From the NCBI GenBank assembly GCA_031409655.1, contig JANNXQ010000012.1, positions 43,509 through 107,508 on the forward strand: a DNA stretch of 64,000 bases. The letters run 5' to 3'. Shown one piece after another: positions 38,995 to 51,332 of this stretch. The DNA is from Chthoniobacteraceae bacterium (lineage in GTDB: Bacteria; Verrucomicrobiota; Verrucomicrobiia; Chthoniobacterales; Chthoniobacteraceae). The position numbers were made by a program, and so were the translations under genes. The notes beneath the pieces are model-generated. The model was not told the origin of the DNA and did not search any database. It saw only the letters and a program-made list of their open reading frames with translations. Position 1 is the stretch's first letter, and every line of letters starts with the position of its first letter.

Positions 38995-40194
38995 CTACAG
39001 CGTCTCGGGAGCCTGGAAGAGCTCGGCGATGCGGGCGAGGAGGCGGCCAGCGGCGCCGCCGTCGAGTACGCGGTGGTCGAAGCTGAGGGTCATCTGCGCT
39101 TCGGTGGCGGGACGGAATTCCTTTTTCGCCGCATCCCACACCGGGACGACGCGACCGGCGCCGAGGCCGAGGACCATGGTCTGCTCGGGGAGCGGGATGG
39201 GTGTGGCCCACTCGAGGGCGAAGCTGCCGAAGTTGGTGACGGTGCCGACGGAGCCGCCTTGCGCATTGGCGGGGAGGCGGCGCTGGCGGGCGAGTTCGAC
39301 GAGTTCATTGTAGCGGGCGACCATGTCGCGGAGCAGCGTCTGGTCGGCATTGCGGATGACGGGAACGAGCACGCCGTCTTCGGCTTCGACGGCGAAACCG
39401 ACATCGACGGATTTCGGATGCACGATGTGGCCACCGATGAGGCGGCCGGCCGGCGCGCTGTTTTCACCGAGCGCGAGCGCGAGCGCGCGCAGGGCGTAGA
39501 GCGCGGGGCCGGCCTTCGGCGAGCTGGCTTTGCGATGCGCGAGCAGGAGGTCGAGTTGCACGCTGCGACCGACGGTGGCGAGGGGTCGCGCCCAGGAGCG
39601 GCGCATGGCATCGGCCACGGCGACGCGCATGGTGGAGGCGGGCGTGAGTTTGTGTTCGTTGAGGCGATCGAGAAATTTTTCAAAGTCCTCGACCGTCACG
39701 CGGCCAGCGGCGCCGCTGCCGGCGATGCCCGCGAGGTCCGCGGCGTGCAGACCGAGTTCATTCATCCGCGCCTTCATCCGCGGGGACATGTAACTCGCCC
39801 CGGCAGCGTGGGCGGGGACGGGCAATCCGCGCACCGTGGGAGCGACGCCTGGGCGCGGCTTGGCGGCTTCCGCATTCTTCGGGTGTCCGTTCTGCGGTTG
39901 CACGTCGCGGTCGGGCGGGAGCGTGTCGAGGCCAAGCCGCCGGGCTTCCGCCTCGCTTACTTCGAGCCAGCCGAGGGTCGCGCCGACGGGATAACTTTGC
40001 TGCAACTCGACGGTGAGTTCCGCGAGCTTGCCGGTGCAGGGTGCGGTCACGCCCATCGTCGCCTTATTCGTCTCCACCTCGATGATCTCCTGATCGCTGG
40101 TGATCTCCGCGCCGACCTCGAAAGGGATACGGACGATCGTGGCCTCGGCGATGGACTCGCCGAGCTGCGGCATGATGATGGGGATGCGGGGCAT
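38995..40194 (-). CDS. 2-oxoacid dehydrogenase E2 (dihydrolipoamide acyltransferase)
   Basis: MPQLGESI, lipoyl VETNKA, E3-binding GSGAAGRVT.ED, SFDHRVLDG. Confidence 0.92.
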   Translation of the reverse strand: MPRIPIIMPQLGESIAEATIVRIPFEVGAEITSDQEIIEVETNKATMGVTAPCTGKLAELTVELQQSYPVGATLGWLEVSEAEARRLGLDTLPPDRDVQPQNGHPKNAEAAKPRPGVAPTVRGLPVPAHAAGASYMSPRMKARMNELGLHAADLAGIAGSGAAGRVTVEDFEKFLDRLNEHKLTPASTMRVAVADAMRRSWARPLATVGRSVQLDLLLAHRKASSPKAGPALYALRALALALGENSAPAGRLIGGHIVHPKSVDVGFAVEAEDGVLVPVIRNADQTLLRDMVARYNELVELARQRRLPANAQGGSVGTVTNFGSFALEWATPIPLPEQTMVLGLGAGRVVPVWDAAKKEFRPATEAQMTLSFDHRVLDGGAAGRLLARIAELFQAPETL

Positions 40195-40197
40195 GGC

Positions 40198-40636
40198 GAA
40201 AGGATGAAGGATGAAGGATGAAGGATGAGGGATGAAGTGGGCTAGCGTGCTGTTGCCTTTTTCACGATCGTGACCAGCATGGCGGTGAGTTCCTCAGTTT
40301 CCTGATGAAGCAATTCCAGTCGTTCGGGTGCGACGATTTTCCCCTCGCCGAGCAGCTCTAGCCAATAGCCGGTTTCTTCGAGTTCCTGCAATGCACCTTC
40401 TATCTTGCTCACGAAATCGGCGTCCGACTTGGCGCGCTTCGCCTCACGATAGTGCGCGCCCACCGAAGTGGCAGATCGCAGCATCTGTCTGCCGAGGATT
40501 CGGGCCTCCTCTGTTTTTGGAAGGGACACGAACAGCTTGATACAACGGAGGGCGAATCGCTTGGTGCGCTGACGCAAGTCGCCTTCCGTTGCTCCACTCT
40601 TTTCTTCATCCTTCATCCTTCATCCCTAATCCTTTC
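40198..40636. mobile_element. Putative intervening element: four-helix-bundle gene bracketed by inverted (AGGATGA)n / (TCATCCT)n arrays
   Basis: Left array 40198-40237 (5 units), right array 40604-40636 (4 units) in inverted orientation. Occupies the whole gap between E1b stop and E2 start. Mobility is inferred. Confidence 0.6.
40242..40616 (-). CDS. Four helix bundle protein (23S rRNA intervening-sequence protein family)
   Basis: LRQRTKRFAL, QMLRSATSVGAHYREA.RA.S.ADFVSK, ELEETGYWLELL. The start codon lies inside the heptamer array. Confidence 0.92.
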   Translation of the reverse strand: MKDEEKSGATEGDLRQRTKRFALRCIKLFVSLPKTEEARILGRQMLRSATSVGAHYREAKRAKSDADFVSKIEGALQELEETGYWLELLGEGKIVAPERLELLHQETEELTAMLVTIVKKATAR

Positions 40637-41598
40637 TAACTGCGGAGCAAATCGCGCATGGCCACGGCGATGGTCCGCGCGGTCGGGCGATGGGTGCCCC
40701 AGAGGTTCGGGTGATAGGGGACGGGCGTGTCTTTGGCGTTGAGACGTTTTGGTGGGGCGTCGAGGAGATCGAAGCCATCCGTGGCCACGCGGGCGACGAT
40801 TTCCGCGGTGACGCCGCCCCAGGGCCAGGCTTCGCCGACGGCGAGCAGGCGGCCGGTGCGGGCGACGCTGGCGAGGACGGTGTCGGTGTCGAGCGGTTTG
40901 ATGGAACGCAGGTCGATCACTTCGATCTCCGAGCCTTCGGTGGCGAGTTCTTCGGCACAGGCAAGGGCTTCGTGGACCATGGCGCTGTAGGTCACGATGG
41001 TCGCGTCGCGGCCCATGCGCGCGATGCGGGCTTTGCCGGTGGGCACGGCTTCCTTCGGGAGCGCTTCGGCTTTGAGGTGATAGTACAGGTACTTGTGCTC
41101 GCAGAAGACGACGGGGTCATCGATGGCGACCGCTTCGAGGAGCATGGAGTAAGCGTCCTCGACGGTCGCCGGTGTCATGACGATGAGGCCAGGGTAGTGC
41201 GCATAGAGACCCTCCATGCTCTGGCTGTGAAAAGGGCCGCCGCCCGAGGTGCCGCCGCTCGGCAGGCGCACGGTGATGGGGCAGGGGACGCGGGTGCGCC
41301 AGTGCATGGTCGCGGCGTGGTTGACGATCTGGTTGAAGCCCACGGTCGAGAAATCCGCGAACTGCATCTCGACGATCGGCCTCATGCCTTCGATGGCCGC
41401 GCCGATGGCTGCGCCGATGATCGCATCTTCGCTGATCGGCGCATCGAGCACGCGTCCGGGAAATTCCTTCGCGAGTCCTTTCGTCGCCTTGAAGGCCCCG
41501 CCGAACTGCCCCACGTCCTGACCGTAAACGAAGACCCGCGGATCTTCACTCAGCGCCCGGGCTTGGGCTTCGCGGATGGCTTCGAGATAGGTGATCAT
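40636..41598 (-). CDS. 2-oxoacid dehydrogenase E1 beta subunit
   Basis: GQDVG.FGGAF.AT.GL, DAPISE, EMQFADF, HSQS.E, IDLRSIKPLD. Confidence 0.95.
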   Translation of the reverse strand: MITYLEAIREAQARALSEDPRVFVYGQDVGQFGGAFKATKGLAKEFPGRVLDAPISEDAIIGAAIGAAIEGMRPIVEMQFADFSTVGFNQIVNHAATMHWRTRVPCPITVRLPSGGTSGGGPFHSQSMEGLYAHYPGLIVMTPATVEDAYSMLLEAVAIDDPVVFCEHKYLYYHLKAEALPKEAVPTGKARIARMGRDATIVTYSAMVHEALACAEELATEGSEIEVIDLRSIKPLDTDTVLASVARTGRLLAVGEAWPWGGVTAEIVARVATDGFDLLDAPPKRLNAKDTPVPYHPNLWGTHRPTARTIAVAMRDLLRS

Positions 41599-42629
41599 TC
41601 GCCGCTGAACCCATCGGTGAGTTGGCGATTGGAAAGCGCGCACCAGTCCTCTTCATCGGGATCGGGGAGGGGCTCGCGGATCGTGGTGGCGATGGCGGCT
41701 TCCACCTGCGCGCTCGCTTCGGTCTGCCATTGGCGGAGCGTCGCGGCATCCGTCCAGCCTTCGCTGAGAAAGCGCTGCTCCGCGACTTTCAGGCAATCGC
41801 GCCCCGTCGCGGATTGCTTTAAGCGGGGATCGACGTAGCCCGCGTCATCATGCTCGCCGTGGCCGACGAGGCGCAGGAGCGTGGCGACGACGAGTTGCGG
41901 ACCGTGGCCGGAGCGTGCGCGCTCGACGGCGCGCCCGACGACGGTGAGACAGGCCGCGAGGTCGGTGCCATCCACGGTGTGTCCCTCGACGCCGTAGCCG
42001 ATCGCTTTATCGACGAGGTGCCGACAGGCAAACTGCCGCGCGTTCGGCGTGGAGTAGGCGTATTGATTATTCGCGACGACGACGACCAGCGGCAGCTTCT
42101 CGACCGCCGCAAGATTGAGCCCTTCGTGGAAAGCGCCGGTCGAGGTGCCTCCCTCGCCAATACACGTCGCGCCGACCGCGCCGGTGAGACCTTGAAAACG
42201 CCGCGCCATGAGTGCGCCGGCGACGGTGGGGATCATCGCGCCGAGATGGCTGATCATCGCGTAGTAGCCTTCGCGCGGGCGGCCGCGGTGAATATTCCCA
42301 TCGCGACCGAGCATCGGGCCGAGGCGCGAGCCGAGATAGGTGCGCGTGTAGTCGAGCAAGGCCTCGCCGAAGGCAAAGCGTCCGGCCTGATCGCGGATCA
42401 GCGGCGCGAAGATGTCGCCTTCGCGCAAGGCCACGCCGACGGAGGCGCTGAGCGCTTCCTGGCCTTTCCCGAGAAAGACGCCGCCGATTATTTTCCCGCC
42501 CCGATAGAGATTGGCGATCCGATCCTCGGCGGTCCGCGCGAGCAACATCCAGCGATACGCTTGGAGGCAAGCGTCTTTGAGATCGGTAGGCTCTGCGCAG
42601 GATGCGCGGGCCGCGGTCGTTTGAACCAT
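41595..42629 (-). CDS. 2-oxoacid dehydrogenase E1 alpha subunit
   Basis: GQEA, TPP motif GEGGTSTGAFHE.LN...NNQYAYS, RL.GHGEHDD. Confidence 0.93.
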   Translation of the reverse strand: MVQTTAARASCAEPTDLKDACLQAYRWMLLARTAEDRIANLYRGGKIIGGVFLGKGQEALSASVGVALREGDIFAPLIRDQAGRFAFGEALLDYTRTYLGSRLGPMLGRDGNIHRGRPREGYYAMISHLGAMIPTVAGALMARRFQGLTGAVGATCIGEGGTSTGAFHEGLNLAAVEKLPLVVVVANNQYAYSTPNARQFACRHLVDKAIGYGVEGHTVDGTDLAACLTVVGRAVERARSGHGPQLVVATLLRLVGHGEHDDAGYVDPRLKQSATGRDCLKVAEQRFLSEGWTDAATLRQWQTEASAQVEAAIATTIREPLPDPDEEDWCALSNRQLTDGFSGE

Positions 42630-42819
42630 GCGCGGGATAGTAGGGAGCGTGGTGCGACGCGTGCAATTGAAGAAATGGCGGATGCGGCGGGTGGTCATCC
42701 TGGCATCCGCAACGCTCCGCGCCAGAGCTGATGAAGATGACGATGCTGAGAATGAGCAGGAGCGAGCCGCCCACTTTCTCTTGGCAAGGCCCGTCCCGTC
42801 TCCGTTTAATCCCCGTCCC

Positions 42820-43959
42820 TTGAAGCTCCTCGACCGTTACGTCCTCCGCAATTTCCTGGAGCCCTTCCTCATCTGCTTCTTCGGGTTCATCGCCATCTGG
42901 CTCATTTTCGATCTGGCGGATAACGGGCCCGACTTCACGCAGGCGAAGGCGTCTTTCAAGGCGGTCGCCTTTTTCTACCTCACGCAACTCCCGCAGACGG
43001 TGGTGATCTCGCTGCCGATCGGCTTGCTCCTCGGCCTGCTCTATTCGCTGAGCCAGATGTCGCGCTCGCAGGAGATCATCTCCATGCTCACCGCTGGGCG
43101 CAGTGTGCCGCGGGTGATCCTGCCTTTGATCGTCGTGGGGCTCATCGCCACGGCGGTCTGCATGGTGCTGAACTACCGCCTCGCGCCCCACGCCGAATCG
43201 ATCCGCAAAATTGCCCTCGAGCAGATCAGCCGCGGGCGGCGGGCCGGGGAGATTGAGCCGGTGAAAGGGCATCTCTTTCGCGATCGGCTCACGAATCGCA
43301 TCTGGTTCGCGCGTCGCTTCACGCCAGGCTCCTTGCAGCTCGATGGCGTCCAAGTCGCGCAGCAGGACGCCGCTGGCCGGATCACGAAGAAGTGGTACGC
43401 GCTGCGGGCGGTCTATGATCCGCGGGCGCGGGAGTGGACGCTCAATCGCGGGATCTCTGTCGAGTTTTCGGAAAATGGCGACATCGCGAAGACGGACGAT
43501 TTTCAGGATTCCTATCGCACCATCAAAGACTGGAGCGAAACGCCGTGGCGGGTGGGCAGTGTGCGGCTGGATGCGCAGGGGCTCTCGGTGCCGGAGTTGC
43601 GCGAGTATCTCCAGCACAATGTCGATTTCCCCGACGTGCAACTCGCGCCCTACCGCGCCACCCTGTCCGATCGCTGGGCGCTGCCCTGGACCTGTCTGAT
43701 CGTCGTCTTCGTGGCCGCGCCGCTCGGCATCGTCTTCTCGCGGCAGGGAGTACTCGCGGGCGTCGCCAGCTCCATCTTCATCTTCTTCGGCATGGTCATG
43801 GTCCGTTACCTTTTCCTCGCACTGGGCAAAGGCAACCGCATCGACCCTTGGATCGCGCCGTGGGTGCCGAATGCGATCTTCCTCTTCGTCGGCCTCGTGC
43901 TGCTTTGGTTCCGCACGACGAACCGCGATCTCCCGAGGCTGCGCCTGCGGAAAGGATGA
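42820..43959 (+). CDS. LptF/LptG family LPS export permease
   Basis: KLLDRYV start, LPIGLLLG.L..L....RSQEI.SM..AG.S, periplasmic beta domain, APWVPN. TTG start inferred. Confidence 0.9.
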   Translation: MKLLDRYVLRNFLEPFLICFFGFIAIWLIFDLADNGPDFTQAKASFKAVAFFYLTQLPQTVVISLPIGLLLGLLYSLSQMSRSQEIISMLTAGRSVPRVILPLIVVGLIATAVCMVLNYRLAPHAESIRKIALEQISRGRRAGEIEPVKGHLFRDRLTNRIWFARRFTPGSLQLDGVQVAQQDAAGRITKKWYALRAVYDPRAREWTLNRGISVEFSENGDIAKTDDFQDSYRTIKDWSETPWRVGSVRLDAQGLSVPELREYLQHNVDFPDVQLAPYRATLSDRWALPWTCLIVVFVAAPLGIVFSRQGVLAGVASSIFIFFGMVMVRYLFLALGKGNRIDPWIAPWVPNAIFLFVGLVLLWFRTTNRDLPRLRLRKG

Positions 43960-44060
43960 AGGCGGAAGGATGAAGGCTGAAGTAGTCAGCGCTGCGCGCC
44001 GCGGTGTCGATTTTCCACCACTCTTCACTTCATCCTTCATCCTTCATCCTTCATCCTTTC
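43950..44060. repeat. Inverted heptamer arrays with short spacer (gene-less derivative of the 40198-40636 element)
   Basis: GAAAGGATGA-AGGCGGA-AGGATGA-AGGCTGA...(TCATCCT)x4-TTC; spacer ends resemble both ends of the four-helix-bundle gene. Confidence 0.8.
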
Positions 44061-47309: not shown

Positions 47310-47424
47310 AAGCACCAAGCAGCAAGAACCAAGCACCAACGATCGCGCACGCAGTCGCGAGAGCGAAAATTGGAATTTGGTGCTTGGCGCTTCTTTGGAG
47401 CTTGATGCTTGGTTCCTGGTGCTT
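47310..47424. repeat. Inverted heptamer arrays (AAGCACC)n / (TTGGTGC)n
   Basis: Four units at 47310-47339; 3+4 degenerate inverted units at 47370-47424; between divergent genes. Confidence 0.8.
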
Positions 47425-48580: not shown

Positions 48581-48653
<73 letters not shown>

Positions 48654-48655
48654 TT

Positions 48656-48690
48656 GCATTTAGGATTTAGCATTTTGGATTTAGGATTTA
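48656..48690. repeat. Single heptamer array (GGATTTA)x5, degenerate
   Basis: GCATTTA GGATTTA GCATTTT GGATTTA GGATTTA between the tRNA 3' end and the panE start. Confidence 0.7.
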
Positions 48691-51222: not shown

Positions 51223-51229
51223 GGGAGGG

Positions 51230-51332
51230 AGCATCGAACGCCGAACGTCGAACGTCGAACCTCCAGTGGATCTCCCGCCCGCTCGCCGCGCGCATTCGAG
51301 GTTGGATGTTCGACGTTCGATGTTGGATGTTC
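51230..51332. repeat. Inverted heptamer arrays (AACGTCG)n / (GTTCGAT/GTTGGAT)n
   Basis: About five units at 51230-51265 and five inverted units at 51296-51332; fills the gap between divergent trmD and PBP. Confidence 0.8.

Follow-up and report, generated by a model that had tools for sequence, protein, structure and literature searches.

Introduction

In REPIN–RAYT systems, a gene is flanked by its own inverted repeats and accompanied by many gene-less intergenic doublets, and in Rickettsia palindromic elements and intragenic REPs, repeat-derived peptides are carried in frame in the loops of conserved proteins. In Coxiella burnetii, the intervening sequence (IVS), which carries a gene of the S23p family, is described as having heptamers in its 5′ arm and as being cleaved by RNase III (PMC4990558), and genes of the same family have been noted in cas loci (PMC3936711), near DGRs (PMC10053308) and among strain-specific genes (PMC8700078). 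As for heptamer arrays themselves, those of GGGAATC in Xanthomonas and Nostoc are reported as inverted pairs, with 70 in X. campestris (PMC4692102), and those of TAACTGA in Beggiatoaceae are reported to occur before start codons (PMC4679880). In the literature searched, from which subscription journals were largely absent, we found no general link between the family and heptamer arms beyond the Coxiella IVS and no account of arms replacing native DNA.

Here, we analyzed a window, that is, the whole stretch of 64,000 nucleotides from contig JANNXQ010000012.1 of a Chthoniobacteraceae bacterium (genome G000), in which a gene of this family lies between inverted heptamer arms within a dehydrogenase operon. 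As in REPIN–RAYT systems, the gene has its own inverted repeats and there are many gene-less doublets, but the gene does not encode an HUH transposase, the arms are tandem heptamers and not short palindromes, and the spacers are unique and sometimes native host DNA. Rickettsia palindromic elements are insertions of one shared element, whereas here arms with lineage-specific units have taken the place of two separate loops. The cassette resembles the Coxiella IVS, as far as that is described, in that the same protein family is found in an inverted-repeat loop with tandem heptamers directly upstream of the ORF. It differs in being located in a protein-coding operon and not within an rRNA gene, in belonging to a genome where 10 paralogues with differing units and some 200 gene-less pairs are found, in having arms without a sign of RNA-stem selection, and in carrying a gene under purifying selection, whereas the Coxiella ORF is reported to be decaying (PMC4990558). 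The GGGAATC and TAACTGA arrays are, like those of G000, dispersed, intergenic, mostly of about four units, often in inverted pairs and near stop or start codons, but the published accounts, as far as they go, tie them to G-quadruplexes, slippage or S1/Csp/CsrA and not to four-helix-bundle genes or the replacement of native sequence. Avd of DGRs (PDB 4DWL, 8UB7) has the same fold as the window protein and is reported to be a pentamer, with flipped-out bases bound between the five protomers (bioRxiv 2023.10.23.563531). Unlike in DGRs, the genome yielded no reverse transcriptase, the variation of the arms is not adenine-specific and the protein is approximately neutral in net charge. The feature is real, and the system that it belongs to is undescribed as far as the literature was searched.

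Results and Discussion

The host operon encodes the E1a, E1b and E2 components of a 2-oxoacid dehydrogenase complex on the minus strand (E1 alpha, 41595..42698, with an uncertain start; E1 beta, 40636..41598; E2 dihydrolipoamide acyltransferase, 38995..40194), and the same operon was present in two Chthoniobacterales-labelled records with an E1b identity of 90–91%. On this strand, the E1b stop codon TAG (40638-40636), which abuts the first arm, is followed after 19 nt by the ATG (40616) of an ORF of 124 aa (40242..40616), and the stop codon of the latter (40244-40242) is followed by five TCATCC(T/C) units, TTCGCC and the E2 ATG (40194), in base-for-base agreement with the order of elements given in a preliminary description of the locus. 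Tandem Repeats Finder (period 7) delimited an upstream arm (40604..40634, minus strand) with 4.4 GAAGGAT copies, as read on the transcribed strand, and a downstream arm (40200..40237, minus strand) with 5.4 copies of its reverse complement, which stops 6 nt short of the E2 start codon, the inverted GAAGGAT arms being 31–38 nt in length. The inverted-repeat match of the upstream arm reaches 40594-40636, and no inverted repeat in the 2-kb region is longer than that of the two arms, which are 84% complementary over 43 nt and share a perfect core of 22 nt. Their score was 52, compared with 28 at the 99.9th percentile of random genome positions, and the arms are not due to chance.

The upstream arm contains the start codon and the first codons (MKDE) of the four-helix-bundle gene, and another ATG of the array opens an out-of-frame 5-codon ORF, MKDEG (40606..40623, minus strand). 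The preliminary description had regarded the arm as supplying both the start codon and a purine-rich sequence resembling a ribosome-binding site (RBS). A start codon within the arm was found in 36 of the 55 cassettes with an ATG-containing unit and in 10 of the 108 others, so that its occurrence there is mostly incidental. The purine-rich arm is unlikely to be important as an RBS because a Shine-Dalgarno-like motif was present in only 7% of the 3,744 crudely called genes of the genome, in which leaders are pyrimidine-rich. Phase variation of the start codon was ruled out by inspection, since every unit of the GAAGGAT array carries an ATG. An Rfam scan gave a tRNA as the only gathering-level match, and even with E values of up to 5 the arms had no meaningful match. 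A promoter and terminator scan gave no signal above shuffles, and the joints that spanned the cassette in four DNA sequencing runs were uninformative on excision, as their source was different loci or different organisms with repeats.

The 124-aa protein scored 93.5 bits against TIGR02436 (cut-off 24) and 72.7 bits against PF05635 (cut-off 33.8). Its AlphaFold model consisted of four helices (pLDDT 92) in a predicted fold like that of the nearest solved structures, 2RLD (Z 17.7) and Xcc0516/2GSC (Z 16.1), and Avd (4DWL) was also matched (Z 13.2, 17% identity). The profile scores, the structure matches and PMC4990558 agree with the family assignment made earlier, including the kinship with 23S IVS proteins and Avd. 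By analogy with 2RLD, which has five chains, and with PMC4990558, the window protein is predicted to be a homopentamer. Residues Q44, R47, S51 and E81 were almost invariant among 163 homologues, and the net charge was about zero in the five proteins checked. Compared with the copy at the E1b–E2 junction of G001, the gene had a pN of 0.20 and a pS of 0.76, and therefore is under purifying selection; the upstream arm was nearly unaltered. With regard to a residue-to-base code between the protein and the repeat unit, a glutamate at residue 58 coincided with a purine at unit position 2 in 103 of 104 loci, and an alanine or serine coincided with T there in 19 of 25. A simulation test gave weak signals, with a family-wise p of 0.016 for that position that came mostly from one clade, and an independent-pairs test, which was without power, gave three supported pairs. 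Such a code is only hinted at by these alignments.

The association of the family with inverted short-repeat arms, which the preliminary description had proposed to count, was evident on a wide scale. Among 219 loci surveyed, 211 had a clear gene and 209 of these had flanks, and an inverted-arm score of at least 30 was found in 141 of the 209 homologous genes, a level reached by 2.6% of the mismatched pairs and at 0.13% of the random positions. Matched tandem arms were present in 164 of 208 loci, with a period of 7 in 131, 8 in 22 and 6 in 11 and a median of 4.4–4.5 copies, and periods 6 and 8 mostly grouped by protein clade among the rows listed. In G000, the arm scores of 8 of the 10 paralogues exceeded the 99th percentile, and all eight genes have co-directional neighbors. 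Paralogues with units other than that of the window cassette include those at G000 C144:34335 and C47:38672; one paralogue (G000 C179:4150-4436) is frameshifted, with decayed arms. With PF05635 as its cargo and a position between E1b and E2, the window cassette conforms to the earlier idea of a transposase-free cassette at gene junctions. The distance between repeat units was correlated with protein identity (Mantel r −0.54, 130 loci), being 1.77 for cross-phylum pairs of at least 60% identity and 3.14 for same-genome pairs below 40%. In these sequence comparisons, the repeat unit was shown to track the protein clade, also across phyla, and not the host genome. With regard to vehicles, 31 plasmid records were matched, with clear matched arms in three of the six copies inspected (two from Nostoc and one from Dolichospermum), whereas phages were rejected, since 50,697 phage records gave two weak matches. 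The gene NPUN_RS35560 of Nostoc punctiforme has arms. In a reverse test starting from the GGGAATC array, such a gene was located within 700 nt in 2 of 80 loci of the 120 found, and at most one of them was plausibly armed.

The E1b–E2 junction was compared in relatives, and the empty sites anticipated in the preliminary description were found: the gap was 60 nt or less in 95 of the 108 junctions with E2 located, consisting of 23 of 27 among the first 29 relatives, none of which had the gene, and 72 of 81 among 82 further junctions. The cassette was also present at this junction in G001 and in L041 and L043, the latter two having been found by searching with the four-helix-bundle gene, and G286 had an arm and the start of the gene at a contig end. 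An arm was present in all five genomes that carry the gene here, and a clade-wide gene without arms, which would have argued against a cassette, was not what we observed. The four filled junctions fell within one 11-row subclade of the tree, intermixed with empty junctions. Gene-less pairs or single arms with other units occupy this junction in further lineages, and the site is therefore tolerant and has been struck repeatedly. The junction is broken in G002 (L013, L281), where E1b precedes a vestige of the E2 start and an unrelated gene, with E2 on another contig, and L360, L367 and L369, from other lineages, have REP-like hairpins without a heptamer period at the junction.

Repeat arms without a gene were abundant in G000. 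Arrays of period 7 numbered 453, whereas period 8 was represented by 31 and period 5 by 22. Inverted pairs numbered 222, 214 of which were gene-less. According to a crude gene caller, 133 of the latter were in co-directional, 51 in divergent and 12 in convergent contexts, 11 were within genes and 7 were at contig edges, so that, as with REPIN doublets, most of them (196) were between called genes. The pair began 30 nt or less from the stop codon in 109 of 127 co-directional cases. Arm length was constant within each family (31, 32 or 39 nt), both polarities were present, and variant units occurred at set positions counted from the outer end of the arm, which suggests copying from templates. 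Only 26 of 183 spacers had a non-self match, mostly of 16–21 nt, and the remaining 157 had none in the genome; a common internal sequence, as in MITEs, was thus limited to one small subset of pairs. Within the window, a gene-less pair of the GAAGGAT family (43952..44058, plus strand; arms at 43952-43982 and 44028-44058, with a 45-nt spacer) provides the lptF/G stop codon with its left arm and is absent there in G001, G002, G003, G012 and G030. The window also contains, on the plus strand, a degenerate gene-less pair of a different unit and opposite polarity (47310..47424), a single GATTTAG-type arm (48658..48690) directly 3′ of a tRNA gene (48581-48653), and, within a divergent gap, a GAACATC-family pair without a gene (51229..51332). 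A reading of the spacers as relics of deleted genes was not supported, with a mean score of 25.5 compared with 24.0 for shuffled sequences and leftover repeat units as the top matches. Local spreading was not supported either, the same family being found in 7 of 36 neighboring pairs within 5 kb with an expectation of 0.25.

The matches to four array patterns rose with the number of four-helix-bundle genes in 60 relatives (rho 0.60; 28 of 44 vs 2 of 16 genomes), which are not independent samples and in which a cassette's own arms add to the counts. The partial r was 0.52 when controlling for GxxExxY genes and −0.06 in the reverse direction. In a cognate-clade test, for which 122 of 193 genes were used, three families showed the association, and the GAAGGAT family of the window cassette did not (2 of 6 genomes, p 0.22).

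To follow the arms over shorter distances, 17 sites were compared with three congeners, giving 32 comparisons read by eye, in which a different or independent pair was found in 11, the same pair in 4, a GxxExxY gene in 1 and no such pair in 16. Gene-less pairs were shown in this reading to turn over at the same junctions between congeners. Two empty stop/start overlaps were found duplicated (5–6 nt) around the filled copy, a duplication that selection alone could enforce. Eleven pairs were in frame within called genes (G000 C103:55380, C127:17381, C130:28349, C137:13871 and seven others), among them dnaE, squalene-hopene cyclase, ubiD and queG. In smc, where the pair of G000 is located in the hinge (G000 C293:17243-17457), paired inverted arms of different units were found in the same two loops in G000, G002, G012, G007 and, weakly, G015, that is, in five of the best 30 of 52 matches. 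These arms need five changes on the tree, and G000, G012 and G007 each have a native sister. The first loop kept its length (13–14 vs 14 codons) at an identity of 7–29%, and the second was longer by 4–7 codons; in four comparisons, the loops had 0–29% identity, compared with 44–63% for the 41–43 codons between the arms, and loop identity between two native genomes was 50% and 80%. In ubiD, arrays occupied one loop in about 12 of 29 genomes, and the native WPxAP core was retained between the arms in G025 and G012 (34 vs 32–33 residues). As judged from these alignments, arms were shown to have replaced native codons around a retained native core in smc and ubiD. Therefore, arms can be set individually on either side of native DNA, which is impossible for a fixed inserted module. 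Insertion also occurs besides replacement: the dnaE pair is a net insertion of 38 codons, and queG has single arms at the native loop length in two genomes and a net insertion in G000.

For the interpretation of the cassette, we give about an even chance to its being a copy of a widespread protein-plus-repeat system that likely operates at the DNA level, with a pentamer binding about five units and a putative enzyme writing the arms. The protein, as a predicted five-subunit ring, would likely recognize about five repeat units on a single strand, with one unit per subunit, binding to a single strand being proposed by analogy because Avd binds bases between its protomers. The putative writer would place arms at tolerant sites, with native sequence being replaced or added to, either by gene conversion from an existing arm or by flap synthesis from nicks on both strands. 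The gene may then move by exchange between arm pairs, for which gene-less pairs would serve as landing sites, and the intervening sequence of a 23S rRNA would represent a copy whose landing site was an rRNA helix, from which RNase III removes it. As for candidate writers, the 94.9%-complete genome gave no match to PF00078 (reverse transcriptase), and only 1 of its 13 matches to Y1 transposase was within 1 kb of an arm. The neighbors of the cassette are dehydrogenase genes and not a reverse transcriptase with a TR/VR pair as in DGRs, and its cargo is PF05635 and not the HUH/Y1 transposase of REPIN–RAYT systems. Counting against the DNA-level system are the six anchors, not five, in the arms of the commonest families, the lack of a cognate gene among the 10 found for some abundant array families in G000, and the fact that the tracking of protein and unit could be plain co-inheritance.

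The preliminary description had interpreted the cassette as an mRNA intervening element, the arms of which pair into a stem of about 30 bp that is excised by RNase III or bypassed by the ribosome, limiting polarity. The transcribed strand is indeed predicted to fold into such a stem (z −3.77), the terminal inverted repeats being comparable in this respect to those of an rRNA IVS. In addition, all 8 well-armed paralogues of G000 lie between co-directional genes, and the heptamer-bearing 5′ arm of the Coxiella IVS is reported to be cut by RNase III in vitro (PMC4990558). However, the fold predicted for the opposite strand is only slightly weaker (z −3.32). Selection for a stem in mRNA would be expected to allow G·U and remove A·C on the strand that is transcribed, but the G·U:A·C ratio was 136:132 (51%) in gene-less pairs and 128:139 (48%) in cassettes, compared with 156:90 (63%) in control hairpins after stop codons in G000 and 37:10 in those with a U tail (Fisher p 0.004 for gene-less pairs and 0.0005 for cassettes, against the controls). 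Both arms were equally conserved, whichever reads purine-rich on a transcript, and the frequency of gene-less pairs in divergent gaps did not depart from that of the background (51 of 196, p 0.67). The absence of a G·U bias and the symmetric conservation of the arms point to a sequence constraint on DNA, with which an incidental cleavage of the arms by RNase III may be compatible. Furthermore, excision would take out about 70 hinge codons in smc, and a stem ending 6 nt before the E2 start codon would probably hinder initiation and not help it. The excision of an IVS is not known to be followed by religation, and a cut here would therefore separate E2 from E1b. An mRNA stem that is excised or limits polarity is thus quite improbable and a weaker reading than the DNA-level system. 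Alternatively, the ring could be an RNA-binding regulator modeled on TRAP, a ring that binds repeats in mRNA leaders, with five heptamers bound in leaders and trailers, the arrays acting as regulatory sites and, here, its own translation coupled to E2 initiation. The retention of the cassette at the E1b–E2 junction beyond synonymous saturation is in line with this, as are the RNA binding of Avd (bioRxiv 2023.10.23.563531), the translational role that MacGregor (2015) proposed for TAACTGA arrays (PMC4679880) and the preference of single arms in co-directional gaps for the pyrimidine-rich strand (37 vs 20, p 0.03), at a median of 7 nt before the start codon. Nevertheless, the strand bias may be because pyrimidine-rich arms resemble the ordinary leaders of the lineage, the two arms are equally constrained although only one reads purine-rich on a transcript, and pairs are found in frame within genes and turn over between congeners, which makes such a regulator unlikely.

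A self-rewriting process driven by the host, in which replication slippage and hairpin-templated repair generate the inverted arrays and maintain them where a site is tolerant and the gene is a passenger without arm recognition, seems fairly unlikely. The heptamer excess has been ascribed to polymerase slippage in the account of the GGGAATC arrays (PMC4692102), no writer enzyme emerged from the PF00078 and Y1 searches of the genome, and an arm was closer to its own partner than to those of other pairs in two of eight family groups, all of which would fit this process. In the other six groups, however, an arm resembled its own partner no more than other family members, indicating no mirroring between arms, and the fixed arm lengths, the position-specific variants, the coupling of the unit to the protein and not to the host, and the rise of array counts with gene counts are all contrary to it. 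The least probable of the readings, and a highly improbable one, is a REPIN- or MITE-like module, a fixed arm–spacer–arm unit inserted by a trans-acting transposase or nuclease. The net insertion in dnaE, the 5–6-nt duplications at two empty sites and the small subset of pairs with a common spacer and outer flanks would be accounted for by such a module, but not the 157 of 183 spacers without another match in the genome, nor the spacers in smc and ubiD, which are native coding DNA. The GxxExxY cassettes, with periods of mostly 8–10 nt that are not predictive of heptamer abundance, also argue against it.

Returning to the DNA-level system, the model predicts that each protein binds the repeat flanking its own gene. 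In a broader form, which is possible but which we regard as doubtful, four-helix-bundle (S23p/Avd-like) proteins would be sequence-specific guides of natural paired-overwrite editing and the source of the heptamer excess seen in many bacteria and of ORF-bearing IVSs, and likely the origin of Avd. Each clade would then recognize its own 6–8-nt repeat, and two inverted arms would be written into the chromosome in place of native sequence, even inside conserved genes. This would join three long-open matters, namely, the function of S23p/TIGR02436, the bacterial excess of 7-base repeats and the origin of ORF-bearing rRNA IVSs. The repeated, independent exchange of native loops for new peptide sequence seen in smc and ubiD is an unusual route of protein evolution, and the writer enzyme, if it exists, would represent a new kind of targeted DNA rewriting.

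Several further arrangements of repeats were observed. Genes of GxxExxY (TIGR04256) were flanked by inverted tandem arms in 20 of 28 loci, mostly with periods of 8–10 nt (G000 C84:19614-19952 and C28:11572-11922; L703-L732), and these cassettes are a parallel system; GxxExxY was rejected as the writer because of these periods and because heptamer counts were not predicted by it. At the E1b–E2 junction of G015 (L019), there is an 8-mer gene-less pair similar to GxxExxY arms. An opposite-polarity subset of gene-less pairs (G000 C127:87200-87450, C4:13030-13260 and C195:93660-93900) has a common spacer and common outer flanks and looks like a hairpin element of about 190 nt that is copied as a unit in a REPIN-like manner. 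At G000 C275:10191-10398 and C127:94204-94545, heptamer arms enclose a different repeated element, about 160 nt in length. Finally, in two Terriglobia records (L107:1426-1892 and L117:1353-1897), E1a and E1b of a different dehydrogenase operon are separated by a four-helix-bundle cassette whose arms are made of 8-mers, which is an independent strike on a similar operon.
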